DNA from: Opitutales bacterium
GTDB lineage: Bacteria > Verrucomicrobiota > Verrucomicrobiia > Opitutales > PNEW01
Length of the DNA stretch: 64,000 nucleotides
Reading direction: 5' to 3'
Assembly (NCBI GenBank): GCA_965197745.1
Contig: CBDANS010000007.1
Location: forward strand, 1,052,306 to 1,116,305
The notes beneath the pieces are model-generated. The model had not been told where the DNA came from. It did no database searches and saw nothing but the letters and a program-made list of their open reading frames with translations. Position numbers and translations under genes: made by a program. Within the stretch, counting starts at the first letter, position 1; each line of letters starts with the position of its first letter. Positions 1,292 through 45,773 of the stretch are shown in pieces.

Positions 1292-1558
1292 TCACCCCTT
1301 TTTTGACCGCGTTTCTTCCATTACCTGACTCTTGAGCATTTGATCAGCAAGCAACTTCTTCAGCGCGGTGTTTTCTTTTCCCAACTCCTTAAATCGCTTC
1401 GCATCGGCCAGTTCTAAATTGCCATACTTTTTACCCCAGCGATAGAAAGTCAGTTCACTTACGTTGTTGCTACGGCAGATTTCCTGAACCTTTTTACCGG
1501 TAACGGCTTGCCGCAGTATTGCGATGATCTGTTCTGTTGTGTATCTTTTTCTTTTCAT
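1292..1558 (-). CDS. IS3 transposase OrfA (HTH)
   Basis: Sequence MKRKRYTTEQIIAILRQ...ELTFYRWGKKYG...LKKLLADQ. The start was moved to the internal Met at 1558. Confidence 0.7.
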   Translation of the reverse strand: MKRKRYTTEQIIAILRQAVTGKKVQEICRSNNVSELTFYRWGKKYGNLELADAKRFKELGKENTALKKLLADQMLKSQVMEETRSKKG

Positions 1559-1699
1559 TAAGCTTATCCGTTTATCCCCATAACCTCTCTCTGTTAATGA
1601 TTCGATTTTTTGGGTCACTCCACCTACATGCACACCTTTTCCAACTGAGCAGTCGAGAATTGGAGGCTGAGAGGAGAGATTGCCAAGGCCGTCCGGCAA

Positions 1700-2096
1700 T
1701 TGTGCTACCGGATGCGGGGCTATGATCGGAAAGCAGAGAAGTATGGGGTTATATTCGTATTCAGGACACCACTTGGGAGGGAATCTCCTTTACTTTCGCT
1801 ACCGAAGGGCTGACAAACCTGGATGATTATGTGCTGAAAGCCTGCCTGGAAATCGCTGAGCCGCTGCTTGCGCGGTTTTTGCAGAAGGGACATAGAATTC
1901 GTGGTATCGGGCTACATACGATTGAAATGGATGCGACCAACCAGCTTGAACTCTTTTTTCGCGAAGACGAAAAGTTAGCGCGGATGTACTTCGCGGTGGA
2001 CAAATCAACAACCGCTTTGGCCTCGACACCATCATGCAGGCTTCCATGAAGTACGCCGTTAAGGGAAAAACTCATTTTCTGGAACGGAATGTTTAA
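1700..2096 (+). pseudogene. Y-family DNA polymerase (DinB-like) C-terminal remnant, frameshifted and 5'-truncated by IS3
   Basis: GIGLHTIEMDATNQLELFF...KLARMYFAVDK continues after a frameshift as INNRFGLDTIMQAS. This matches the little-finger/C-terminal pattern of DinB. Confidence 0.45.
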
Positions 2097-2391: not shown

Positions 2392-4776
2392 ATGCTTCGA
2401 AAGCTCATATTTTTTGCGGTGACTGCTATAATGTTAAGCAGTTTCCAATTTCTTTACGCACATAATGTGTCTTTTCCTTTACCCAGTGATAAGATCAATG
2501 AATACCCTTTTAACATGGTGGGAAAAGTTTCCTCGAGAGATTTCGTTGGTTCTGGCACAGCAATATCACAAAAGGTTGTTCTCTCCGCAGCACATGTTTT
2601 TTTTGATATTGAGAATCTAGATTGGCATCCAAGCCCTTTTAGGTGGAACTTACGCCATTCTCCATCCGATCGAATTTTTGATATAAGTGCGCGATCTTAC
2701 AATCATTTTAGCGACTTTGCTTTAGCCACACGCCGTTTTCAACCTGATGATCCGGCTTTCAACTCATATGAACAATTTAATCGCGATGTCATTACTCTTA
2801 TATTTTATGAAGATGTAGCTAATGGAGGCCATGCAGGACGGGGTAGCAACCGAATCACCGATAACTCTGATAAAATGATCGTCGGATATCCTAACCTGAA
2901 CTACCCCGATTATGATCAGAGAAGAGACACAATGCATTCGACTAGTCTTGATGGGAGTCCTGCCAAATATGAACTGATAGACTACTATGACCGACAGGGT
3001 TCTATAAGTCGACTTTATGAAACTTACGATTTGTCTACAGGTCCAGGTAATAGTGGGGGTCCGGTATACGGGTTAATTAGATTTGCGAATGGTACTGTTG
3101 ATTGGGGTGTAGTGGGTATAACTGTTGGTGGCCGTACAGGCGAGTCTTCCGTGGCGGTAGGTATTGACCAAGCTATTTCTGATTTAATCAAAGAGGCGGA
3201 ATCCACTTTTGATACTATCTCATCCGACGACCATGGATATACTCGCAGCACAGCGACCACGGTAGAACTTAATCGCTCTATTGCGGGCAACTTAGATACA
3301 GTTGGTGATATTGATTATTTTCGTTTTGTAATAAAGAGCGATGGAACGATAAATGCATATACAACAGGTGATACCGATACCCTTGGAACATTACAGAATA
3401 ATTCAGGAAACGTTATTACGACAAAAGACGGTAGTGGTTCAGGGGAGAATTTTTTAATTACACGGGTACTCAATCCGGGAACATATTACATCGCCGTCAG
3501 CAATTTCTCTTTTGAAAAAACAGGTAGATATTCTTTTCGCGTTGATTTTACTGAGACCATTAAATTACCAGACTTAGCGGTTGATTTTATTAGCGTAGAC
3601 AGAAGGTCAGTAGTAGCAGGTGAATCGGTTCGTGTTGGTTTCAATAGAAGTAACACGGGGGATAAAAATTCTGGTATATTCGCTCATGGGATCTATTTAT
3701 CGGGGGATAAAATTATTACAACCAGAGATACACGATTGTTAAATTTGAAAAATATAAGTATGAATGTGGGTGCTTCAGGAAGAATCTCTTTTAAAGTAAT
3801 TATACCAACGAATACAATTCCGGGTATTTATTACCTAAGTTATATTCTCGACTCTGATATGAAGATTAAAGAAACCGATGAGACTAACAACACAGGTTAT
3901 GCTGAAATTACGGTATCGGAACCTATTTCAGACGATGATGGAGACTTAGTGCTTGGTGGCTTTGGTGATATAGCTGGAAAGGATATTCAGCACCCTAATG
4001 GAAACGTCTTTGACCAAATTTTGCTCACTGGACCATTCATAAAGCTCAAGGCGAAGCCAGGTCAGATCACGAGGGCATCGTTTATGGATGAAAACGAAGA
4101 CATTGTCCAGGTAGAGTTCTCAGGCAGCGGTACCTTTACCGTGACATTAGACCCGACCACTTTTTTACCTCCCGCTTTACCCCCACGCTATAACCAGCAG
4201 GTGGAGTACGTCACCGGCAAGCCCAGCGTGGTGATCGAAGGAGCAGACTCCTCGACCTTCTTCAGTATCTTCACGGTGGGATCGATCAACGCGGTGAACC
4301 AGACGTTGTTCCCCGAGGGACAGGTCTATGATGCGCAAGCGGATGTGACTCTGGTGGAGGTAATTAACTCCACGGGTACCGGAGGGATGCAGTTGTCGAA
4401 CACGGTGTTCAGTGGAAGCACGGGCAACGTCGGGGTGATTGCAAGAGTGGTGCCGATTGCAGTACGCTTAACAGTTGGTGATATCGATGCTGATGGCGAT
4501 GCAGTGCCGCACCTCTTGTTCGGAGAAGGTTCGTTCACGGTGCCATCTGGCAATCCCGGGTTGCGCATCACCGGTGGAGACTTGAAGCAAACAAACAGTG
4601 CTTCAATCGTGATCGCGGAGAGCAGATCGACAACTCCCGGGTTTGAGATCCTGATCTCTCAGAATAACTTCAAGTCCGATGGAATCCCTCAGCCCGCTCA
4701 AAGTATAGATGCTACCTTTGTAAACGAGGACGGAACTGTGATCCCCGTAACTGTGGATAATTTAACAATCGAATAA
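2392..4776 (+). CDS. Secreted multidomain trypsin-like (S1/V8-type) serine protease with PPC-like, CARDB-like and a shared 276-aa C-terminal domain
   Basis: Signal peptide present. His motif SAAHV and Ser motif GPGNSGGPVYG. DIDYFRF...GTYYIAVS (pre-peptidase C-terminal type). PDLAV...ETDETNNTG (CARDB-like). The C-terminus is about 80% identical to that of 60004..61980. Confidence 0.8.
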   Translation: MLRKLIFFAVTAIMLSSFQFLYAHNVSFPLPSDKINEYPFNMVGKVSSRDFVGSGTAISQKVVLSAAHVFFDIENLDWHPSPFRWNLRHSPSDRIFDISARSYNHFSDFALATRRFQPDDPAFNSYEQFNRDVITLIFYEDVANGGHAGRGSNRITDNSDKMIVGYPNLNYPDYDQRRDTMHSTSLDGSPAKYELIDYYDRQGSISRLYETYDLSTGPGNSGGPVYGLIRFANGTVDWGVVGITVGGRTGESSVAVGIDQAISDLIKEAESTFDTISSDDHGYTRSTATTVELNRSIAGNLDTVGDIDYFRFVIKSDGTINAYTTGDTDTLGTLQNNSGNVITTKDGSGSGENFLITRVLNPGTYYIAVSNFSFEKTGRYSFRVDFTETIKLPDLAVDFISVDRRSVVAGESVRVGFNRSNTGDKNSGIFAHGIYLSGDKIITTRDTRLLNLKNISMNVGASGRISFKVIIPTNTIPGIYYLSYILDSDMKIKETDETNNTGYAEITVSEPISDDDGDLVLGGFGDIAGKDIQHPNGNVFDQILLTGPFIKLKAKPGQITRASFMDENEDIVQVEFSGSGTFTVTLDPTTFLPPALPPRYNQQVEYVTGKPSVVIEGADSSTFFSIFTVGSINAVNQTLFPEGQVYDAQADVTLVEVINSTGTGGMQLSNTVFSGSTGNVGVIARVVPIAVRLTVGDIDADGDAVPHLLFGEGSFTVPSGNPGLRITGGDLKQTNSASIVIAESRSTTPGFEILISQNNFKSDGIPQPAQSIDATFVNEDGTVIPVTVDNLTIE

Positions 4777-5027: not shown

Positions 5028-5267
5028 CTATAAATAGCTACTCTCACTTGCCATACGGGAGAGCCCAACATCGTCGCATAGTTCAAGCTGCGATTTGTCC
5101 CGGAAGGTAAAAGTATCTTCTTGATAGGTGATATTTTCGCGACAACTCTGCGCCTCCCTCCGGTTGTGTTTGTCGATGACGTCTTGTCTGGTGCCACGGT
5201 GTTGCCAGAGCAAGGACAAGCCAATCAAAGTAAAGACCAGAAGAAAGCAAATAAGAACGATAACCAT
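5028..5267 (-). CDS. Small hypothetical membrane-anchored protein
   Basis: 79-aa ORF with an N-terminal hydrophobic helix (VIVLICFLLVFTLIGLSLLW). No clear RBS. Confidence 0.25.
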   Translation of the reverse strand: MVIVLICFLLVFTLIGLSLLWQHRGTRQDVIDKHNRREAQSCRENITYQEDTFTFRDKSQLELCDDVGLSRMASESSYL

Positions 5268-6123
5268 GAGAGTAACTTTATACGTGGTTCTCTGGTTGTG
5301 ACTAGTTCAAAAATCTCATATCTTAACATTAGAAGCAAGACGCACGTCGTTTGGATAGGTCCTGGACAAATGCATTTTACAGTTTCTTATGACAGATTTC
5401 TATTTCGAGACAGGGACAGGGAAATCTCGAGCTTCCTGAATCTAAGAGCGGGACAGAGGGGGGCGGTTTTTTTTGCGTTAGGTTGACGCCGTCATGATGC
5501 CTTCAATATATAAATTTATAACTTTTCTTTTGTTTGTTGTTTTGCGCGCGCAAGTTGTAAAAACAGGACTTCAATCTTATCTGTAGACACACTTAAAAAA
5601 GAGAGGGAGGATCGACACGATTCTCTCTTATCAAGCTGTCCATTAATTAATGGATATTTTAGGTTGTCCGCAATGAAGACCAACCTGTGGACACACTAAA
5701 AAAGTGATCTATCGTTTCTGGGTTGCTTGAGCAGACCGTTATTGGCGGTAGTGTGCGCGGACCAAAAGGGGATACCCTAAAAGGAGATCTTAGAAGGAGA
5801 CCCGCACAATCGTTATTATGTCCAGTTGATTTGTAAATAATTGATATTCAACATATTAAATTTATACATAAAATTCCTAACGGTCTTAGAACGACGCTAA
5901 TTAAGGGGTAAGCCCCAGTTTAAAACCCTAATTAAGCCGGGGTTGACATACTATTGTTACACGCACTGCGCCCCATAATTCAGAGTATCCCTATCAAGAA
6001 AACGTTCGCCGTCTGACATCGCCGGTGTCCGCTAATTTGGGAATAAACCAATCTGGGAGCAAATCAGGTTACAGAGGGGCGGGGGGGTGCGATCGGAAGA
6101 CCGACCCTTAGTCCATATATCGA

Positions 6124-6500
6124 TTTACTCACCGGAAAATATTTTTACAAAGGGCAAAGTTTGGGAGCAAAATAATTTAAAAAGACCCTGCTTAAATTGG
6201 CTTTTAAATGTACGATTCCCCTCCGTTATGAAACCCCCTTTCTCGAGGCTCTCAGACCCCTTCACGGGCAAATCAAATCAAGCTTCCAGGCTTCAAAAAA
6301 TCCCCTCGGACACAAACCCATTCAAGCGAGCGTACGAAAGCACGCATTATCTTTTAGAATATTTCCCCGCAGTAAAATCTGTTCCTTAAAGATATTGTCT
6401 GTGTCTGCTTGGGACAGCTCATTTCAAATATTAAAATGTCCATTGATAAAAAACATGTAGGTAACCAAATTAAATCTTGGTTGCTTTCGAGGTTTTATTA
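6124..6500 (+). ncRNA. Candidate non-coding transcription unit U1 (promoter-like TTTACT-N16-TACAAA to hairpin plus U-tract)
   Basis: Paralogous to U2. It ends in GGTAACCAA-N8-TTGGTTGC followed by TTTCGAGGTTTTATTATTA. The G-T pair in the stem only works on the + strand. ORFs here are not conserved in U2. Confidence 0.35.
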
Positions 6501-6543
6501 TTACGGTTTTAATCAGCAGATCGACCGGGGGTCCCCCAATTAA

Positions 6544-6945
6544 TTTACTCACCGTAAAATATATTTACAAAGAGGGATGTAAGGGACCCAAAAAATAAAG
6601 CCACAAGCATTAAATTGGCTCTAAAAGGTACGATCACCCTTCGTCATGATATACATTATGCCTTAAGATACAACCGCCCTTTCTCGAGGTATTCAGCCCT
6701 CTTGAAGAGCAAATCAAATTAAGCTTAGAAGCTTTAAATATTCCCCCAGCCTTGAAAACATTCAATCGAGCGTACGAAAGCACACATTTTTATAACTTAA
6801 ACTATATTCCCCAGACAATGTCACCGTACTAAAATAGTATAGAAGAGAATTTGCCTACATTGCTCGTTTATTTATAAATGCATTAACAAAAAAACATAAC
6901 GGGTAACCAAATTAAACTTTGGTTACCCCAATGTTCTTTAATATC
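6544..6945 (+). ncRNA. Candidate non-coding transcription unit U2
   Basis: Starts with the same motif TTTACTCACCGTAAAATATATTTACAAAG. Shares the internal blocks CCCTTTCTCGAGG and GAGCGTACGAAAGCAC. Ends in the hairpin GGGTAACCAA-N8-TTGGTTACCC. No ORF of 60 aa or more. Confidence 0.35.
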
Positions 6946-7085
6946 TATGTTCTTATCAACCTTGTTCTTCGTACAAGTCTGCACCCTGTGCTGGTTTTAT
7001 CACAATAAAGATGTCCAGGGTGCATGTATAAGATCGATAAGGTGTCCAGTATGCATATTTATTAAACCTGTGCATAAAACTATTT

Positions 7086-7241
7086 CTGATCGATCAGGAT
7101 TTGCATTTTGGCATCATTTTCGTGATTTTTCGTAATCCTGATCGATCAGAACTTGTGTTTTTGTGTCATTTTCGCGATTTTTCGTAATCCTGATCGATCA
7201 GAACTTGTGTTTTAGCATTATTTTTGTGATTTAGCCTTTTT
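7086..7241. repeat. 52-bp tandem repeats, each carrying the 12-bp palindrome CTGATCGATCAG (iteron-like)
   Basis: Palindromes at 7086-7097, 7138-7149 and 7190-7201, spaced exactly 52 bp. Degenerate ATTTTCGYGATTTTTCG units continue to about 7330. Confidence 0.8.
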
Positions 7242-7520
7242 CGTTTTAGCAAGACTTACGTTTCAGGGCCATTTTGTGATTTTTCATGATTCGCTTTTGC
7301 GAGATTTGCATTTTTCCCCACGCCCGCACCTCGTAAAGAGGTTAATGATGCGGCGATAGCTACAGAGCCGACGCTACTCCAGGCAAACTTACTAGCATGT
7401 TTTTATTGATGACCTAAGTAATGGTTTTACTTAAGTAGAAGATGAACCCCGACCTGAATGACCCGGGGAATCCAAAAGAGTGGAAATAGTATTTTTTTTG
7501 CATGGATCATCTTTTTAAAA

Positions 7521-7668
7521 CGACCGGTAAATATATTTACAACTCAGACCCTTATCCCTCAGACAATATTTTCGTACTTAAATACCATACAAAAGAATTT
7601 GTCCGCAATGCCCGTTAATAAAAAAGCTGATGCTTGAGGGAAGGGGGTGTTACCAAGCACCCCCTTTT
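7521..7668 (+). ncRNA. Candidate short unit U3 (promoter-like start fused to the 3' part of the U2-type unit)
   Basis: CCGGTAAATATATTTACAAC start, then a 3' part homologous to U2 (CCCTCAGACAATATTTTCGTACTTAAATA). Ends in a strong terminator. Confidence 0.3.
7642..7668 (+). terminator. Intrinsic terminator hairpin
   Basis: GGGGGTG-TTACCAAG-CACCCCC followed by TTTTT. It abuts the stop of the convergent gene 7668..8273. Confidence 0.7.
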
Positions 7669-8273
7669 TATCTTGTTTTTGGAAAGTATTCCTTTCCAGC
7701 CAACCATAAATAAGTATCAATCTCTCTAAGCGAAAAACCGGTTAGCTTATAAAACATCTGAAATTTCTTAATAACATCTGAAAATATCTTGTAAGTCTTT
7801 AATTCATATCTTTTAAACTCAGCAAATTGATACATATTTCTAAAGTGCCATAGCATTTCACTTACGTGATGATCATAAATCGAATAAACATTTGGTTTAT
7901 GATAACTGTAGTATTTTGTCGCGAAAGAATAATTATTCCGGGATTTACCACCTATCTCGACTGAAGCAATTTCGTTTATTAAATCTCCTTTCCCGCTGTT
8001 CAAGTCTTCATCTATATCTGAAACATAGATATGGTTCGATACTGAATAAATATCAAATATATTGGTTCCGGAGAGTCGGTTTAATGCTGTAGTCTTCAAT
8101 AGAACAAATCTTAAATCGTTGTTTTCTGGACATAGTTTAGTAAATAAGACTTTCAATGCATCTTCTTGATCATTGTATTGTTTCATATATCTCCATTTCT
8201 TGAGATAAGATTTAACAATTCTTTTACTTGGTTTCTCAACTGATCTTTTCATTGTTCTCCTGGTCGTGACCAT
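7668..8273 (-). CDS. Hypothetical protein (201 aa)
   Basis: Clean AT-rich ORF with no recognisable catalytic motif. Confidence 0.55.
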   Translation of the reverse strand: MVTTRRTMKRSVEKPSKRIVKSYLKKWRYMKQYNDQEDALKVLFTKLCPENNDLRFVLLKTTALNRLSGTNIFDIYSVSNHIYVSDIDEDLNSGKGDLINEIASVEIGGKSRNNYSFATKYYSYHKPNVYSIYDHHVSEMLWHFRNMYQFAEFKRYELKTYKIFSDVIKKFQMFYKLTGFSLREIDTYLWLAGKEYFPKTR

Positions 8274-8306
8274 CCAAACCTAAATGACTATGGTCGGGTG
8301 ATCGGG

Positions 8307-8881
8307 TTACGTAAACTGGTCCACCGAGAGAGTTAGTCTGGAGAGGTTAATGTTGAAGTTAAGTTGGTAGAGGAAGTCAAGGCTTGGGCGCAATGAGGGC
8401 GTAGCCCGAATGGAGCACGAGCCTTGTTTATAGGCGTCCAAAGCGAAGCGTCTCGGTGTAATGTTGCCGAGACTGCGGTGTGGGCGAACGTTGTTATAAA
8501 GCCAGCGCCAGTCTTCGATAACGACACGCGCTTCGGTCAATGTCCATAATTGCTCGCGATTTAAGCACTCCTCGCGAAACCGGGCGTGGAAGGATTCAAT
8601 GTATCCGTTGTTATTCTCGCTATCGCTCGTTGAGGTGTCGCTTCGCTCGGTAGCCAGGGACTTCCCGGTTCGATGTAGATGGTTCTGATATTCATGGCAG
8701 CAAGCCAGGTCCGCAACTGCGTTTCTATTAAATGGCTTCGCATGTCGTCGCTTCGCTCCTCGGAACCGAACCGTTGTCGCTGCGGATATATGGTGGAGGT
8801 CCCTATTGCTTGATCAGCTTCTGCATGACAGCCCGTGCGCTCTGTGCATTGATAAGACGATCGACAGGGATGAACAGGCAC
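8307..8881 (-). pseudogene. IS3 OrfB (DDE) remnants
   Basis: Fragments TEARVVIEDWRWLYNNVRPHRSLG and IYIEPGSPW lie in different frames. Confidence 0.75.
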
Positions 8882-9260
8882 TCGCGCGTATAGGTCTTCG
8901 CTTCACTTGAGTGTCGTCGCTTTCAGCTCCTCGGTACATCGAGTATCGTCAGCATCTTGAGACGGCCACCGCGGATCGTCTTATCGTGGATAAAATCCCA
9001 GCTGAAAACGTGGTCAGGATATTCGGCGGCAGTCAGCAAGCCGGTGGAGACACCCCGTCGCCGGCGTTTCGGCCTTGCGCGGGGCAATGGCCAAACCTAA
9101 CTCGCGACGCAAGCGTTGCACCAAGCGTTTACCTACCTCCCATCTTTCGTCCTTCAACAACTTCGTGATCCTGGTATAGCCCCCAGCTGGCATATTGCCG
9201 GGATAACCGCCGTATCGCCGCTTTCAGCTTCATTAACCACACGCATCAGATTGCCTCGTC

Positions 9261-9659
9261 TCATAGACATACGTGGGACGGTGGAGGAGAAAATATCGGC
9301 ACGCTCCACGCATCGAACATCGGCCCCGAGCTGCATATCTTTCCGCCACCTGAGGTTTGTGCCCAGGGCTTACTACCGAGCGTATGCGACATCTCCCATT
9401 TTTTTTCGAGGGTCTCCTGCAGGATCTCTATCCCTAGCAGCTTGTCCGCCAGCATCCGCTTTAACCGCGTGTTTTCCTTCTCCAGTTCCTTCATCCGCTT
9501 GGCCTGATTCACATCAATCATCACAAACTCCCGTTTCCAACGGTGGAAGGTCTGTTCGCTGAGGTTATTCTCACGGCACACTTCCTGGGTCGACTTGCCT
9601 CTGTCTGCTTGCCGCAATATCCGTATCTTCTCTTCGGTTGTATATCTTTTGCCTTTCAT
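9261..9659 (-). CDS. IS3 OrfA (HTH), copy 2
   Basis: MKGKRYTTEEKIRILRQADRGKSTQEVCRENNLSEQTFHRWKREF...LKRMLADKLLGIEILQETLEKK. Confidence 0.7.
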   Translation of the reverse strand: MKGKRYTTEEKIRILRQADRGKSTQEVCRENNLSEQTFHRWKREFVMIDVNQAKRMKELEKENTRLKRMLADKLLGIEILQETLEKKWEMSHTLGSKPWAQTSGGGKICSSGPMFDAWSVPIFSPPPSHVCL

Positions 9660-10031
9660 TGTCTGAGTCCTTTCCAGGTTACCCAGAATAACTTTTCAAG
9701 GGGCTCAGTTTCCGTGGTCTCGACCAACTACTACCTTCTTGAAATAGAAGCAAAGCCTCGTGGATATGAGAATACTGTAGTCCATGCTTATTCGATTCCA
9801 AAACAACAGCTTTATGAAGTTTATCAATCGCTAACAAAGCATTTTCAGCCAAAATAGTTATATCACATTCTTCTTTAGTTAATGAGGGTTTATCACAAGT
9901 TTATATTAGTGTTTCCATAGTTGTATCTTTATATAAGTCAGTGTTTATTATTATTTTTTAGTTAAGATCTAATTCTAGGAAATTCCGTTAATAAATTCAT
10001 AAACACATCATTAAGTGTCTCATGTGTCTTT

Positions 10032-10613
10032 TTAATTATGACTTATGTTTTCGATGTCATCTTCCACTTTCTCATCGAACTTAATTAAAGACTTTTTCCA
10101 GTCAAATAACGCTTCCCATTGGCCAGTCGAGGGATTTTCTCTTTTCCAGTTATTTTTCTCTTGTAGTTCCCAAAATGAGTCAGCAGCTCTTTCGTCAATA
10201 CCCATAGCATCGCAAATATCGATGAACTCATCGTAATTTTTCGGAAGAGGACGGGGTGAAGGAAGGGCTCTTTGCCTCTCCTGCGCTGCGGGGGTCAATA
10301 AGGTGTAAGTATTATATACTCTCCTGCCTCGACCTGATTCTATTTTCAGCAACGTTATAGCGCTTAATATTTTAAGCACAGCGGAGGTTTTACTTTTCGA
10401 TAAACCCGCGCGGTAAGCGATCAATCCGATCGAAGCAGAGAAGGGACGAAATTGATCTCCATGATCATTAGCAATCCAGTTCAGGGCACTGTAAACAGAA
10501 ATTGTAAATGAAGCGTTGGTCCCCAGTACTTCCTGTAAAATAATTATATGCGCATCCTTATAATTTCGGTAATAGGAGAGCTCTTTACTTTGACCTGCTG
10601 GATTTTCAGGCAT
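10032..10613 (-). CDS. Winged-helix DNA-binding protein, possible replication/primosome organiser of the integrated element
   Basis: The N-terminal half looks like an HTH_36-type wHTH (LSKSKTSAVLKILSAITLLKIESGRG). The Trp-rich C-terminus is DnaD-like. It overlaps the upstream HTH gene by 8 nt. Family assignment is from memory. Confidence 0.45.
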   Translation of the reverse strand: MPENPAGQSKELSYYRNYKDAHIIILQEVLGTNASFTISVYSALNWIANDHGDQFRPFSASIGLIAYRAGLSKSKTSAVLKILSAITLLKIESGRGRRVYNTYTLLTPAAQERQRALPSPRPLPKNYDEFIDICDAMGIDERAADSFWELQEKNNWKRENPSTGQWEALFDWKKSLIKFDEKVEDDIENISHN

Positions 10614-10875
10614 GTCTCTTCCTGTGCTTGCGGGCTGCTGTCTGCTGATTCTCCAACTTTTCCAAAGTCGTTAAGAGCGTCTCCCGGCGGTATAACTTTC
10701 TGCCTCCTATGCGAATCGGTTTAAGCAGTCCGCGCCTGTCGTAATTTCGTACTGTGCGAATGGAGACCCCGAGTATTACTGCGGTCTCTGACTCCCTCAG
10801 CAACAGGGGCGGGTCGATACGAACTGAATTGAGTGTAGATGGGGTATCCATGGTGCCTTGTAATTTAAGGCACAC
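10606..10875 (-). CDS. Excisionase/AlpA-type (MerR-like HTH_17) DNA-binding protein
   Basis: LRESETAVILGVSIRTVRNYDRRGLLKPIRIGGRKLYRRETL. The likely true start is Met at 10851. Confidence 0.7.
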   Translation of the reverse strand: MCLKLQGTMDTPSTLNSVRIDPPLLLRESETAVILGVSIRTVRNYDRRGLLKPIRIGGRKLYRRETLLTTLEKLENQQTAARKHRKRHA

Positions 10876-10941: not shown

Positions 10942-11253
10942 TTAATGGAGAACAGGTGAATTCCCTCTTTCAAGAGCGATTTTAATTATTTCTGTGACTG
11001 AAAAAACGTTTGGATAAACACGTTGTATCAACCCATTTTGATCGGGACAATCTTCGTTGCTATTATCTATCGCATCGGCTTGTCCCTCAATACGGGAATA
11101 GTATCGCCTTTTTCGAAGAACCGGGTTAAGGTTTTTACCAAATCCCCGCTCAACAATCGCTTTCTCAATTGCATCAGCCCGTGGTAGAGATTCAGATGTG
11201 CGAAAGTGCTCAACAGCCAGAAAGGATTTCCACTGCGCCTCTGTCCCAAACAA
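10942..11253 (-). CDS. Hypothetical protein (103 aa)
   Basis: The ORF starts where the DUF6499-like homology to module 2 ends. No homologue is recognised. Confidence 0.3.
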   Translation of the reverse strand: MFGTEAQWKSFLAVEHFRTSESLPRADAIEKAIVERGFGKNLNPVLRKRRYYSRIEGQADAIDNSNEDCPDQNGLIQRVYPNVFSVTEIIKIALERGNSPVLH

Positions 11254-11941
11254 CTGGACTTTTGTGGCGGGGAATCCTCTTCCAGTTTTTCGGTAATAAG
11301 CTTGATGATTTTATCACGGGAACTTTTGTCTCTCATAGAGACACGAGGGACGGCAAATAAACGATAAGTATTAACTGTCCAGTGCCAATACAGTGCCGTA
11401 TCCGAAAAACAGCTCTCAAGAGCTGCTTGCGAATGGTCTTCGTGGGGCAGCGCAGGGGCTATTTCTATATCAGGAGGTATTGCATCTTCGTTGGGATATA
11501 ATCCTGAAGGGACGATCTCGCAAATATCCGCCGTATAGTCCGCCCAATAATCTCTGTACGCCTTCTGAAATCCTCGCGGGGTATTGAGCCAGGTTGAATC
11601 AAGCTTTAAAGGGGCACGCCCTTTTTTCTTATCCTCTTTGTATTCTTCTAAAAACTCAACCTGGTCCTCTTCTATCCTCGGACCTACTACCTGACGATGT
11701 CCTTCTTTGGGCCCAAGCCCACGTGGGATTATTACTGGTTCATGCATCCAGTTCCAGGCCGCTCCCGCAAAATAATTACGGTCATCTTGAACGAACCTGA
11801 ATTTTTCCCATCTTCCCTCTTTGCCCTGAAGACTATGCTAAGCTCCTTTGTTTTTTCTTGAAACGCTTTATTGCGTCGAAGTAATTCCCATATCTTCGCC
11901 GGTATGCCGTCCTCACAGGGATTGTAGATTGATAAGCTCAT
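11067..11941 (-). pseudogene. DUF6499-like protein (WELLRRN motif), frameshifted copy; homology to the intact copy ends near 11240
   Basis: The gene is split into 11732..11941 and 11067..11747. Relative to 33766..34476 there are 2 extra nt near 11850, which breaks the frame. The N-terminal motif is IPAKIWELLRRNKAF. Confidence 0.6.
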
Positions 11942-12735: not shown

Positions 12736-14022
12736 TCAATCTAATGGTTTAAATGCGACAACCGATTGCTCTGCATTTGCCGGGAGAATTGAGAAATATT
12801 TTTCCCCCTCTGTTCTGCTAGCAAGACTCCGGTAATGATCAAACAGTACCTGGTCACTCGAACGATGGCCCAGCATCGCTGCTGTCTTGCTTGAATCACT
12901 GGTCAGGGCATAATAGTAGCTGCCGAAGCTGTGGCGCATCGCATTGCTGTAGTTTCCCCCCCAATGGGGAAAGCCCGCTTGTTTGGTTAACTTAGCAAAG
13001 TTTATGTATGAATTTGCGGGTGCAACTTTACCCTTTTTATTATGACATAGCTGCAACCATGCCACACAATTGTCCATAAGATCCATGACTCTTAACTGGC
13101 GCTTTTTAGCTATCTGTGGGCCAACCGTCAGTAACTTGCGCTCCAGATCAATAACCGACCAGTCAAGCCGGTAAATCTCAGTGCTCCTTAACCCTGCGAA
13201 CAGCCCTAGTGCCACCAATGGGAGCAGCCCCATATCTTCATCTGTCTTTGCCGCATGCAAAACCAAATCTTCTGCTTGAGTGACTTTGAGAATGACAGGG
13301 GGCTTCCAGTCTATTTTTGGGATTGGAATTTTCTTCACGGGGTTATCGACCCGAAATCCCTTGTTCACCGCATAGTTAAAAAAGCTGCTTAAGCATAAGC
13401 GGTAGTTTATAATGCTTCTCACAGAGAGATCGGTAAAGTTATTGAGCCACTCCTCTATTTCCGTTTGAGAAATCTCCTTGACCACTCGGCTCCCAAAGTT
13501 TCTAGAGAAGATTCCCAGCCGGGAGCGGATATCATTTATGGAGCGCGAGCGCAGATTCCGGTTTTCTTTTTCCTCAATCAATGTTGCCGTTAATTCCAGA
13601 ACCGTAATATCACCGGCAGGGGGATTCAAATGCAGCTTGGCAAACTCCGCTGCCTGCAAGAGGGTAATGTCGAAACCTTCCAGTATTTCGAATGCGTTGA
13701 AAGCGTCCTTGGACTGGTACCCGGTCAGGTTATAATGATGCTGCCCGTGTTGAAGCAATTGTTCGTGTTGTTCTTTTGCCCAGGCAAAAGCGACCTCTTT
13801 ATCCTTGAACTGTCTTCTCATTCGCTTGCCCGCGAACTTCGCGGGAATCAAAACCTGGTAGGAAAATCCGTAATCATCGCCAGCGGTTCGATTGATAACT
13901 TCCCTGATTGTGATAGCACTTTTTTTAGGGTGCTCCCAGCTATTAAGGGGACTCGATTTTTTACGTTTTCCTTTAGTTGCCTCCATCAAGCAAACTAATG
14001 CCTCAATCAGGTTTACTTGCAA
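12736..14022 (-). CDS. Tyrosine recombinase/integrase (module 1)
   Basis: 428 aa with catalytic-region motifs AGLRSTEI, MRHSFGSYY, LGHRSS and FDHYRS. About 88% identical to 35178..36464. Confidence 0.9.
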   Translation of the reverse strand: MQVNLIEALVCLMEATKGKRKKSSPLNSWEHPKKSAITIREVINRTAGDDYGFSYQVLIPAKFAGKRMRRQFKDKEVAFAWAKEQHEQLLQHGQHHYNLTGYQSKDAFNAFEILEGFDITLLQAAEFAKLHLNPPAGDITVLELTATLIEEKENRNLRSRSINDIRSRLGIFSRNFGSRVVKEISQTEIEEWLNNFTDLSVRSIINYRLCLSSFFNYAVNKGFRVDNPVKKIPIPKIDWKPPVILKVTQAEDLVLHAAKTDEDMGLLPLVALGLFAGLRSTEIYRLDWSVIDLERKLLTVGPQIAKKRQLRVMDLMDNCVAWLQLCHNKKGKVAPANSYINFAKLTKQAGFPHWGGNYSNAMRHSFGSYYYALTSDSSKTAAMLGHRSSDQVLFDHYRSLASRTEGEKYFSILPANAEQSVVAFKPLD

Positions 14023-14079
14023 GCTTTATTGACAATAATAATACAGGAACATTACAAGTCATTGATATATTTATATATA

Positions 14080-15107
14080 AACGATTCGATGATCCGTTCT
14101 GCCAAGGGCTTGCTGGTTCGATATAGAGGGTATTGATTTTCATCGCAGTTAGCCAGGCTCTCAATTCACTTCCAATAAATGGCTTCGCATGTCGTCGCTT
14201 CGCTCCTCGGAACCGATCCATTGTCGCTGCGAATATATTGTGGCGGCCCATGACGGTCGAGCAGTTTTTGCATGACCCCGCGCACCTTCTGCGCATTGAT
14301 ATGGCGATCGACATGGATCACCCGACACTCGCGGGTGTACTCGTCGAGGACGGTCAGCATTTTGAGATTCCCACCGCGAGCCGTCTTATCGTGGATAAAA
14401 TCCCAGGTCCAAACAGGGTCGGGATGTTCGGCCTTGGTCGGCAGCCCGGTGGAGATACCCCGGCGCCGACCTCTTGGCTTGCGTGGGGGGATCGCCAGAC
14501 CCAGTTCACGTCGCAGACCTTGCACGAGACGTTTACCCACCTGCCAGCCTTCGTCCTTCAACAGCTTCGTGATCTTCGGATAGCCCCACCTCGCCTATTG
14601 CCGTGATAACCGCCTTACTGCCGCCTTCAGTTTCGTTAGCCAGGCATCCGGATACTTCGCCCGATACGCATAGGTGGAGCGGTGCAGGTGAAAGTATCGG
14701 CACGCTCCACGCATCGAACACTGGCCCCGGGCCACAAGTCTCTCTGCCACTTGCCGCTTGTGCCCAGGGCTTACCGTTTTTTTTCGAGGGTCTCCTGCAC
14801 AATCTCTATCCCCAGCAGCTTGTCCGCCAGCATCCGCTTTAACCGCGCGTTCTCCTTCAAAGAGTTCCTTCATCCGCTTGGCCTGGTTGACATCGATCAT
14901 TCCAAACTCACCCTTCCAGTGGAGGAAGCTCAGTTCGCTTAGGTTGTTCTCACGGCATCCTCTTCCTGGGTCGATTTGCCTCTGTCTGCTTGCCGCAATA
15001 TACGTATCTTCTCTTCGGTTGTGTATCTTTTATCTTTCATTGTCTAAGTCCTTTTTAGGTGGCCCAGACCAACTTTTCAAGTGTCACAGTTTCCGTGGTC
15101 ACGACCA
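14080..15107 (-). mobile_element. IS3-family element, copy 3, truncated by about 420 bp at its orfB end
   Basis: Homology to copy 4 begins abruptly at AACGATTCGATG (14080), next to the integrase upstream region. The intact end is ...CCGTGGTCACGACCA at 15107. Confidence 0.8.
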
Positions 15108-15372
15108 ATAATATCCCTAGAACTAATATTATATGCATACTTAGAGGTAATATATTACCGATTACTTCTTTCACTTCCATTGTAATTTTCCTTTCTGTTA
15201 TTTGTTTATCTGAATTGTGACTTTTGTATATAATTCCCTAATTTAGCTTAATTTCTCGTTCTCATTGGATCATGGTCCAAACTCAACAAATTGGTTCAAC
15301 CGGACTTGTTTGACGAATGGAAGCAAGCTTCACGTTTGGTCTGGCTGAAATCGAAAGCGGATATAGGCGGAC

Positions 15373-43656: not shown

Positions 43657-44974
43657 TGATCGGGTTACGTAAACTGGTCCACCGAGAGAGTTAGTCTGGA
43701 GAGGTTAATGTTGAAGTTAAGTTGGTAGAGGAAGTCAAGGCTTGGGCGCAATGAGGGCGTAGCCCGAATGGAGCCCAAGCCTTCGGTATTAATGTCTTCA
43801 GCGAAGCACCGTGGGGTGATATTGCCGAGGCTGCGGTGGGGTCGGACATTATTGTAAAGCCAGCGCCAGTCCTCGATCACCACGCGGGCTTCGGTCAAAG
43901 TCCATAGCTGTTCACGGTTTAAACACTCCTCGCGAAAACGGGCATGCAACGATTCGATGTATCCGTTCTGCCAAGGGCTTCCTGGTTCGATATAGAGGGT
44001 TTTGATTTTCATCGCAGTTAGCCAGGCTCTCAATTCCTTTTCAATGAATGGCTTCGCATGTCGTCGCTTCGCTCCTCGGAACGGAACCGTTGTCACTGCG
44101 AATATATTGTGGCGGCCCATGACGGGCAAGCAGTTTTTGCATGATACCGCGCACCGTTTCCGCATTGATATGGCGATCAACATGGATCACTCGACACTCG
44201 CGGGTGTACTCATCGAGCACGGTCAACATTTTTAAACTGCCACCGCGGACCGTCTTATCGTGGATAAAATCCCAGGTCCAAACATGGCCGGGATGTTCGG
44301 CCTTGGTCGGCAGCCCGGTGGAAACACCCCTGCCCCGACGTCTTGGCTTGCGTTGGGGGATCGCCAAGCCCAGTTCGCGTCGTAGACCTTGCACGAGACG
44401 TTTACCCACCTCCCAGCCTTCGTCTTTCAACAGCTTCGTGATCTTCGGATAGCCCCACCTGGCATATTGCCGTGATAACCGCCTTACTGCCGCCTTCAGT
44501 TTCATTAACCAAGCATCCGGATGCTTCGCCTTATACGCATAGGTGGAACGGTGCAGCCGAAAGTACCGGCACCCCGCTCGCATCGAACACTGGCCCCGAG
44601 CCACAAGTCTCTCTGCCACTTGCCGCTTGTGCCCAGGGCTTACAGTTTTTTTTCGAGGGTCTCCTGCAGGATCTCTATCCCCAGCATCTTGTCCGCCAGC
44701 ATCCGTTTTAACCGCGCGTTCTCCTTCAAAGAGTTCCTTCATCCGCTTGGCCTGGTCGACATCAATCATCCCAAACTCACGCTTCCAGCGGTGGAAAGTC
44801 TGTTCGCTAATGTTGTTCTCGCGGCATGCTTCCAGGATCGTTTTCCCTTTGTCCGCCTGCCGCAGCATCCGTATTTTCTCTTCAGTTGTGTATCTTTTGC
44901 CTTTCATTGTCTGAGTCCTTTCTAGGTTACCCAGACTAACTTTTCAAGTGTACCAGTTTTCGTGGTCACGACCA
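43657..44974 (-). mobile_element. IS3-family element, copy 4, complete ends (1318 bp) with a 4-bp target duplication ATGA
   Basis: TG...CA termini. TSD at 43653-43656 and 44975-44978. A8 slippery run at 44646-44653. Confidence 0.9.
44041..44907 (-). pseudogene. IS3 OrfA-OrfB fusion reading frame, terminated inside the DDE domain by a 33-bp insert
   Basis: An indel near KEL/FEG joins the orfA and orfB frames. ...YIRSDNG is followed by SVPRSEATTCEAIH*, which is encoded by the insert at 44047-44079. The rest of the DDE domain is in ORF 43665..44183. Confidence 0.8.
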
Positions 44975-45773
44975 ATGAAAACCATCAGCAACATTTATAA
45001 GCTGTGTCGTGATGCGGAGGTCGTTTCCTGATTTACGCACACTCCCTTCAAGCACCGTTGCAACTTTGAGTTGTTCACCGATTGATGGGATGTCTAAATT
45101 TTCTTCCTTGAATCTGAAGGATGAAGTTCGCGCAGCTACGTGCATACCTGCAATCTTGGTAAATGCATTAATGAGCTCCTCCGCCATCCCCTCACAGAAG
45201 TATTCCTGATCTTTATTCGGACTCATGTCGTGGAAGGGAAGGACAGCGATGGACTTTATTACAGACTCAGGCTCAGGTGCTTTTCTTAATATTAAATAAC
45301 CGATGACAGTTACCGCTAATAGCAATAAAGGGATCAGTCCCCCCAGGGCTACGTTCCGCCATGTGAAAATCTTATGTCGATGAACCTTTTCCTCTGTGCC
45401 CCCTTCTGTTGCAGCGTCATCAGGATCTGTCTCCTTGGGCTTCGCCCTTTCCTGGACAAACGCGGTAGCCACAACCATTGGGAAGCCGACAAGGAGCAAC
45501 ACTATTGCCATAGTTGGTGACCACTCGGGCAAACCGAGACTGGTCGTTAGATGCTGAACGACCTGCAAGACGATCCAGCTGCCAACAAGGTAGATTAATA
45601 TCACCTGCCAAAGTGAACGTCGATGAATCTCGTGTATAAGCTGGGTTAAGCTAGGCATGGCTATTGCAGCAAAAGATGGCGAATGCTTGAGAGGAACTGG
45701 GTCGTTAGTCTGAAGCCATTGCCTTAAACTGTAAAGGATGAAGCAAACGGCTATGTGAAGGGGCTATCTCACA

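Follow-up and report, generated by a model that had tools for sequence, protein, structure and literature searches.

What a short run of palindromes, repeated at every fifth turn of the helix, is doing in the non-coding DNA of a mobile element is the question raised by this locus of an Opitutales bacterium. The locus lies in a 64-kb stretch of contig CBDANS010000007.1 (hereafter the window, meaning the whole stretch analysed), on an integrated element that carries genes for a tyrosine integrase, an excisionase-like protein and a 193-amino-acid (aa) winged-helix protein resembling replication initiators (here Rep, gene rep). Our preferred reading, drawn from sequence comparison and held tentatively, is that the array could represent iteron-like binding sites of a dimeric protein encoded by the element, most probably Rep, and could form part of an origin or copy-control region. 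In its most likely function, the array varies a theme that is already well known.

Exactly three copies of the palindrome CTGATCGATCAG are present in the window, starting at 7086, 7138 and 7190 with the 52-bp phasing that the earlier note had described, and the same three sites are returned when one mismatch is tolerated. The mean count in shuffled sequence is 0.19, and none of 100 shuffles reaches three. Tandem Repeats Finder delimits 7086-7232 (period 52, 2.8 copies, 85% matches), and a repeat search found three 52-nt copies at 7081, 7133 and 7185 together with a weaker 50-bp pair (7222-7263 and 7272-7313). When units are numbered along the strand of rep (Table 1), the palindrome position holds TCGCAAAAGCGA in U1, TTGCTAAAACGA in U2 and the perfect palindrome in U3 to U5, and the in-register but degenerate U1 and U2, reaching about 7317, bear out the suggested decay of the array into further units up to about 7330. 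The proposal that each palindrome is followed by the same sequences holds in part: AACTTGTGTTTT follows the second and third palindromes but GGATTTGCATTTT follows the first, and the segment CATTTTCG(T/C)GATTTTTCGTAAT is found after the first and second only, being degenerate after the third; the segment CATTTTCGYGATTTTTCGTAAT is present after two of the three. The setting, earlier called AT-rich, is moderately so (60-72% AT in 40-bp windows, GC 0.36 for 7001-8000) but contains no striking AT-rich unwinding element. The A-tracts of the array are phased at about 10.25-10.5 bp, with a vector strength of 0.62 that was reached by 45 of 2000 random placements. The arrangement is not that of a CRISPR array, as the whole 52-bp unit is repeated and the sequence between palindromes is conserved between units; an Rfam search of 5500-8500 at permissive thresholds gave chance-level matches alone (E above 0.6); and three small open reading frames (ORFs) across the array (62, 28 and 27 aa) were rejected as genes, being not conserved and broken by indels in relatives. 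The array is real and non-random, and some constraint acts on it.

Contigs carrying related elements give the array a history. A second assembly of the 2.29-Mb metagenome-assembled source contig (L001) and a 12-kb contig (L002) match the window identically throughout the region but for one difference: L001 carries four palindromes in place of three, owing to an additional U3-type unit. The closest relatives otherwise are L043 and L044, whose Rep proteins are 84% and 81% identical to that of the window, and the number of perfect palindromes per contig is one in L043, two in L044, three in the window and L002, and four in L001. In L043 the array comprises U1, U2 in degenerate form and a single perfect palindrome, TCGATCGATCGA; in L044 it comprises two copies of TCGATCGATCGG set 62 bp apart, so that the spacings of 52 and 62 bp correspond to five or six helical turns. 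The palindromes share the core GATCGATC, and their outer two bases differ symmetrically, being CT..AG in the window and TC..GA in L043. Both relatives share one order, in which the rep stop codon is followed by a short module, a 213-bp segment, the array, a block of ATGCA and AAGAACA motifs and a hairpin with a T-run; the array lies about 450-560 bp downstream of the rep stop codon, with no gene between. It therefore adjoins the initiator gene in L043 and L044, as expected of iterons, and is separated from it in the window by a secondary insertion.

This 2.36-kb insertion is absent from L043 and L044, which indicates that the array is ancestrally linked to rep and not to its present neighbour gene. 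At either end of it is a direct repeat of 10 bp, TTATTAACGG (9994-9985 and 7621-7612 on the minus strand), and this repeat matches the beginning of box B in the repeated module described below. A connection between the array and the adjacent HI_0787_N gene was rejected, because this gene and the IS3-family element make up the insertion that L043 and L044 lack, and because HI_0787_N homologues elsewhere lie in unrelated contexts without an array.

The non-coding DNA on both sides of the array is conserved at 91-96% in L043 and L044, against about 90.5% for the rep coding sequence, which speaks for our preferred reading. On one side, the region from the ATGCA/AAGAACA block through the last palindrome (6929-7097) is 95.2% and 95.8% identical to L043 and L044, compared with 90.4% and 90.6% for rep; its three AAGAACA motifs read TGTTCTT on the plus strand at 6932, 6948 and 6963. 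A DnaA-box-like site, TTATGCACA, which fits TTWTNCACA, is invariant in L043 and L044, and since such sites occur at background frequency only its position and this conservation count. On the other side, the 213-bp segment is 91% identical to L043 and 95% to L044. A structured RNA in this segment was considered and rejected (folding z = -2.0 on the minus strand, the best value, and -0.6 on the plus strand, with too few sequences for covariation). The short module copy directly follows the rep stop codon in L043, L044 and L038, and the hairpin GGGTAACCAAA..TTTGGTTACCC with its T-run is likely a terminator closing the rep-side non-coding region.

Outside this close group the array gives way to other sequences. 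L034 and L036, with Rep 71-73% identical, have no such array but carry other short repeats between the rep stop codon and the ATGCA block, namely GTCTATTGACG three times at spacings of 22 and 10 bp, including the palindrome GTCAATTGAC, and then TTTACGGA twice. The ATGCA/AAGAACA block remains alignable in both, about 100 bp past the rep stop codon. Different repeats at the same position are the pattern expected if an initiator and its sites co-vary. L045 (6001-8074) and L046 (3165-5222) are uninformative here, since an IS21-type insertion with IstB-like ORFs has cut their rep to 114 aa and the region of the array and the ATGCA block is missing. Absence from all related elements, which the earlier note had named as telling against its proposal, is thus only part of the picture: the array is kept in reduced form, with one or two palindromes, in L043 and L044, and is absent where Rep is 53-73% identical.

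These comparisons also bear on the possibility that the array is a largely neutral minisatellite, in which at most one palindrome has a function and the remaining units, with no role of their own, arose recently by slippage or unequal crossover in AT-rich intergenic DNA. The difference of three versus four palindromes between otherwise identical contigs shows that the array is labile, the newest units are nearly identical, the relatives keep only one or two palindromes, and the more distant elements none. Nor does the pattern recur widely. Region 6800-7700 had no BLAST match in E. coli genomes, PLSDB plasmids or INPHARED phages; a GTDB genome scan for two palindromes 30-50 bp apart gave 29 matches in unrelated organisms, mostly Actinomycetota and Myxococcota, all at other spacings and none with 52-bp phasing; the palindrome-pair pattern had two unrelated matches in IMG/VR; the array-internal pattern had none in JGI metagenomes; and the palindrome sequences appear in the literature only as unrelated oligonucleotides. 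Nevertheless, a neutral repeat would not be expected to keep its palindrome core while the outer bases change symmetrically in all copies, to hold its spacing at whole helical turns (52 and 62 bp), to lie in non-coding DNA better conserved than the neighbouring coding sequence, or to retain its older units U1 and U2 in register. We consider a mainly neutral origin, although the strongest of the rival readings, unlikely on balance, and for a single ancestral site it is compatible with our preferred reading.

The candidate binder is the 193-aa protein, and here the earlier suggestion of a winged-helix Rep-like gene on the same element stands, since models and profiles agree on a winged helix and the affinities of the family in phage profiles are only to replication initiators. 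In the AlphaFold model (pLDDT 83), a winged helix at the N-terminus is followed by a small C-terminal domain, and a profile search of PDB sequences matched an ArsR-type winged helix-turn-helix (E 0.014). With Foldseek, the N-terminal domains of RepA_N initiators were recovered (4pql, 4pt7, 4pta and 5kbj; E 2e-3 to 2e-2, TM about 0.5), and the viral library gave proteins annotated as replication protein or initiator, Replication protein C and lambda GpO N-terminal. Close homologues number only 18, all in the same kind of module, and hmmscan of 12 family members matched replication-initiation PHROGs exclusively, phrog_391 ('replication initiation O-like') in 8 of the 12 (E up to 0.1, best 7.4e-4; E 0.0096 for the window protein) and phrog_270 in 4. 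A profile search extended the family to 238 remote homologues, and the 72 scanned matched phrog_270 'replication initiation protein' (37), phrog_8102 (22), a DnaD-like loader (15) and the O-like family (13); one remote homologue is fused to a DnaB helicase. These transitive matches are strong, the direct ones weak. In Pfam the protein matched neither Rep_3, RepA_N (PF06970) nor any other plasmid-Rep family, tblastn against plasmid and phage records gave no match, and the Rep alignment found no relatives in JGI metagenomes or IMG/VR. We accept 'winged-helix, replication-initiator-like' as the best description that its sequence and predicted fold allow. Rep is preferred as binder because, like the repeats, it differs from lineage to lineage. 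The HTH_17 protein is disfavoured as a specific binder, since its helix-turn-helix stays the same whether or not an element has the palindrome.

The origin or iteron reading fits best by position, symmetry and phasing only; binding itself, the identity of the binder and any replication are what we infer. Besides the adjoining initiator gene, the tandem direct repeats themselves (period 52, 2.8-4.5 units) are as found in iteron arrays. Several observations nevertheless weigh against it. Typical iterons are units of about 17-22 bp spaced about 22 bp apart, whereas the units here measure 52 bp, or 62 bp in L044, around a palindromic core of 12 bp, which is a short site for a dimer of winged-helix proteins. 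The single perfect palindrome of L043 implies that multiplicity is not required, the site changed symmetrically only once in evolution, TCGATCGATCGA can equally be read as (TCGA)3, and L043 and L044 are 2x and 4x assemblies. L037 and L038, whose Rep is intact and 53% identical, have neither the array nor the ATGCA block. TTWTNCACA matches number four in 64 kb where five are expected, and around the array neither an IHF consensus nor any window exceeding 75% AT was found. As for the protein, its RepA_N matches in Foldseek are no better than those to MarR/ArsR/CodY-type repressors, and its homology to initiator families is weak (best E 4e-4).

Were our preferred reading correct, Rep dimers would fill the 12-bp palindromes after excision of the element, the palindromes lying on one face of intrinsically curved DNA with phased A-tracts (52 or 62 bp, five or six turns). 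The nucleoprotein complex would work together with the adjacent and more widely conserved ATGCA/AAGAACA block, which could serve host factors beside the variable repeats, and with the DnaA-box-like site, and it would either open the DNA or recruit host replication proteins there. Slippage or unequal recombination could gain or lose 52-bp units and so shift the number of sites. The copy-control iteron arrays incA of P1 and incC of F lie downstream of repA and repE, and the array might alternatively titrate and handcuff the initiator as they do.

The earlier note had left open an origin, a partition site and an operator; the origin fits best, while the other two are disfavoured. As a transcriptional operator array, the palindromes would bind a dimeric repressor, either the winged-helix protein or a host factor, and control read-through of the rep operon or expression of cargo. 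Perfect palindromes are typical operators, the structural matches to MarR/ArsR/CodY-type repressors reach the level of those to initiators, and the array lies in the transcribed path from the rep stop codon to the hairpin and T-run. Yet no sigma-70-like promoter was found in or beside the array and no gene starts beside it in any relative; the only other copy of GATCGATC in the window, at 4280, is within the CARDB gene, and none lies upstream of any element gene. That the palindrome is missing from every promoter-proximal position in the element speaks against a classical auto-operator, and with protein family matches exclusively to replication-initiator families, an operator role appears improbable.

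The palindrome sequence itself could point to a signal dependent on methylation or structure, such as Dam/SeqA-type sequestration, a phase switch or a cruciform recombination hotspot. Each palindrome contains two overlapping GATC sites, which places six GATC within 110 bp, and GATC is not avoided in the genome (observed/expected 1.39). Any two palindrome copies with their flanks form 26-nt inverted repeats at 88%, and the single-strand DNA fold has z = -2.8. A palindrome of 12 bp with no loop is, however, a poor hairpin, and L043 retains a single palindrome. We regard such a role as very unlikely in its own right; a methylation-dependent role would be compatible with initiator binding.

In architecture the array comes closest to a centromere of the sopC type, in which tandem units of about 50 bp each carry a short inverted repeat for a ParB-like protein, and tandem units with one inverted repeat each are indeed what is found here. 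In F, sopC is built from 12 direct repeats of 43 bp, and SopB binds a 16-bp inverted repeat in each of them (PMC3177203). The likeness thus covers tandem direct repeats of about 45-50 bp with one short inverted repeat each, but here there are three or four units instead of 12, on an integrated element with no SopA/SopB-type genes. ParA and ParB homologues were found neither among the scanned element ORFs of the window (Pfam and PHROG) nor in the precomputed Pfam calls of L001, which makes a partition site unlikely; in addition, an integrated island does not need partition, and one site suffices in relatives. A centromere is therefore scarcely to be expected.

Among known replicons, the iterons of theta plasmids resemble the array in several respects, with direct repeats near and downstream of a winged-helix initiator gene (here initiator-like), helical phasing on curved AT-rich DNA, an adjacent DnaA-box-like site, a variable repeat number and sites that differ between related replicons. 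The differences lie in the 52-bp unit against 17-22 bp, the perfect 12-bp palindrome against an asymmetric iteron, the chromosomal integration, and the initiator with neither a Rep_3 or plasmid-Rep Pfam match nor a plasmid homologue by tblastn. In the Staphylococcus aureus pathogenicity islands (SaPI) and phage-inducible chromosomal islands (PICI), the origin lies immediately 3' of rep; their replication proteins are a helicase (SaPI Rep) or a primase (PICI Pri-Rep). These islands (see also PMC9371898) share with our element the order of integrase, HTH_17/alpA-like protein, initiator and repeat-rich non-coding region. The protein here has only 193 aa, however, no packaging or interference genes were seen, and the cargo comprises secreted-protease-like (CARDB) and dCache genes. 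The RctB 12-mers of Vibrio chromosome 2 need Dam methylation. Like the palindromes, the 11/12-mer iterons of RctB (system listed in PMC11711613) are short initiator sites containing GATC, but they are not palindromic 12-mers of this sequence, and RctB is unrelated.

Lambda O dimers bind 19-bp inverted-repeat iterons, of which lambdoid phages have four or six (PMC7466680). The resemblance consists in tandem palindromic sites for winged-helix initiator dimers (here predicted), in their varying number, and in the O-like phrog_391, which is the best direct family match of the window protein family although homology is marginal (E 7e-4 at best). By contrast, the lambda iterons are 19 bp long and closely spaced inside the O gene, whereas the sites here are 12 bp long, 52 bp apart, downstream and non-coding. 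The PLE satellite of Vibrio cholerae has a RepA_N protein that binds semi-palindromic iterons in a non-coding region (PMC7145576). It is likewise an integrative island whose small initiator has no helicase or primase domains and whose non-coding repeats have inverted sub-repeats and A-tracts, and RepA_N is among the top Foldseek PDB matches of our protein; on the other hand, PLE has a serine recombinase, there is no RepA_N Pfam match here, and the repeat sequences are unrelated.

That the array lies on an integrated mobile element, as proposed earlier, is supported by the integrase gene, the HTH_17 or excisionase-like gene and a GC content of 0.36-0.49 against about 0.57 in the flank beyond 15.3 kb. 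The island genes are on the minus strand, and the CARDB/trypsin-like gene is on the plus strand past the array region. The array falls within a gap of about 2.3 kb (5300-7668) that has no gene calls in the window. The conserved ORF between the integrase and HTH_17 genes is frameshifted in the window into ORFs of 69 and 226 aa, with a 290-aa call in L001 and 328-334 aa in relatives; this ORF of about 330 aa was rejected as a replication enzyme, having no Pfam, PHROG, PDB sequence or fold match and a model of low confidence (pLDDT 66). No primase, helicase, terminase-small, capsid-remodelling, packaging or interference genes were seen in the element, and a neighbouring 171-aa ORF of L034 has only sub-threshold P-loop matches (AAA_18 E 0.028; IPT E 0.0099). 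The cargo includes a large, secreted-looking protein with CARDB, trypsin-like and PPC domains (2392-4776, plus strand). Similar cargo stands beside non-coding modules in the distantly related element of L037 and L038 (12218-15694), and 1 kb beside the CARDB cargo is 85% identical between window 5200-6231 and L037 10749-11796. Among window tetranucleotides, CTAG (0.32), GTAC (0.39) and ACGT (0.48) are under-represented and GATC (1.39) and TCGA (1.47) over-represented (observed/expected).

Table 1. Coordinates of the array, the features around it and the related features of other contigs (window positions unless a contig is named).
Feature	Position	Strand	Remark
52-bp tandem array	7086-7317	- (strand of rep-like gene)	4.5 units in register
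Array unit U1	7317-7266		
Array unit U2	7265-7214		
Array unit U3	7213-7162		
Array unit U4	7161-7110		
Array unit U5	7109-7086		
Palindrome CTGATCGATCAG in U5	7086-7097		orthologous to the single/last palindrome of L043 and L044
Palindrome CTGATCGATCAG in U4	7138-7149		
Palindrome CTGATCGATCAG in U3	7190-7201		
Hairpin GGGTAACCAAA..TTTGGTTACCC, then T-run	6901-6928	-	start of repeated module
Conserved non-coding block beside array	6929-7085	-	repeated ATGCA-type motifs and three AAGAACA motifs
DnaA-box-like TTATGCACA	7069-7077	-	fits TTWTNCACA; 8 bp from last palindrome
Conserved non-coding segment, 213 bp	7331-7543	-	between short module and array
Short copy of repeated module	7523-7621	-	box A ACCGGTAAATATATTTACAA, box B
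Insertion, 2.36 kb	7622-9984	-	about 260 bp, IS3-family element, HI_0787_N-domain gene and terminator
Terminator of insertion	7638-7669		bidirectional-looking
HI_0787_N-domain gene of insertion	7668-8273		
IS3-family element of insertion	8299-9727		
193-aa winged-helix, replication-initiator-like protein	10032-10613	-	candidate binder of palindromes
HTH_17 / MerR-type protein	10606-10875	-	AlpA- or excisionase-like
Conserved ORF	11067-11941	-	between integrase and HTH_17 genes; frameshifted in window
Tyrosine integrase of element	12736-14022	-	
Integrase-side junction, window	14022-14110 (+ 14101-15108)		
Integrase-side junction, L034	~1540-1709		
Integrase-side junction, L037	~4300-4477		
Integrase-side junction, L045	~2650-2843		
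Module copies, window	6118-6480, 6540-6930, 7523-7669		
Module copies, L034	10750-11096, 12586-12841		
Module copies, L039	28-293, 1600-1831		
Module copies, L043	6189-6392		
Module copies, L044	4603-4894, 6150-6349		

At its integrase side the element abuts an orfB of the IS3 family that is cut at the same conserved codons (...EPGSPWQNG-x-IE) in four independent genomic contexts. In the junction alignment the IS3 parts are diverged (about 67-79% identical), and the adjoining 95 bp or so of the element is highly conserved. This shared breakpoint and conserved end suggest, from sequence, that IS3 transposase genes may be a site-specific target of the element, whose opposite end was not found. 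An intact, unoccupied putative target motif, CCTTGGCAGAACGGATACATCGA, is present at 43954-43976 within an IS3 copy (43657-44975) and is the only full match in the window. The presence of a tyrosine integrase and an HTH_17 excisionase-like protein on the element also raises the possibility that the array provides arm-type integrase or excisionase sites of the attachment region, since such proteins bind repeated sites. In the window, however, some 7 kb separate the array from the integrase-side junction, and in L043 about 3 kb lie between it and the int gene; the junction has a conserved sequence at another place, and the HTH_17 protein is invariant where the palindrome is lacking. Distance and the separately conserved junction speak against such a role, which we find barely credible.

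A second recurrent feature of these elements is a repeated non-coding module of about 100-430 bp, made of box A ACCGTAAAATATATTTACAA, box B TATTCCCCAGACAAT... and a hairpin end. Several copies per element bracket cargo genes (dCache, CARDB/trypsin-like and others), which amounts to a cassette-like organisation. Non-coding arrays of another kind, with seven to nine tandem 8-bp units GGTTGACT / GTTGACTC each, occur in L034 (12890-12963) and L036 (12778-12841 and 13296-13342), the second array of L036 being inverted and about 500 bp from the first; the window has no such arrays.

Viewed more broadly, the array might be the specificity and copy-control determinant of an undescribed group of small integrative replicons, defined by insertion at the IS3 PWQNG motif, hairpin-module cassettes and a 193-aa phage-type initiator acting on 12-bp GATC palindromes spaced by five or six turns, with unit number as a fast-evolving dial of copy number or of incompatibility among elements in the same cell. 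As a whole this would be a long shot. No long-standing question is opened by the array alone, which is of use mainly because it marks the cis-acting core and leads to an element family undescribed in the libraries searched; the apparently site-specific IS3 insertion and the cassette-like modules of that family may outweigh it in interest. If our preferred reading is true, the element would provide a compact and tractable replicon from uncultured bacteria, consisting of an integrase, an excisionase-like protein, a 193-aa initiator and about 700 bp of cis-acting DNA, with an unusual iteron geometry of one 12-bp palindrome every five to six helical turns. The natural alleles with one, two, three and four sites would then form a series relating site number to copy number or incompatibility.

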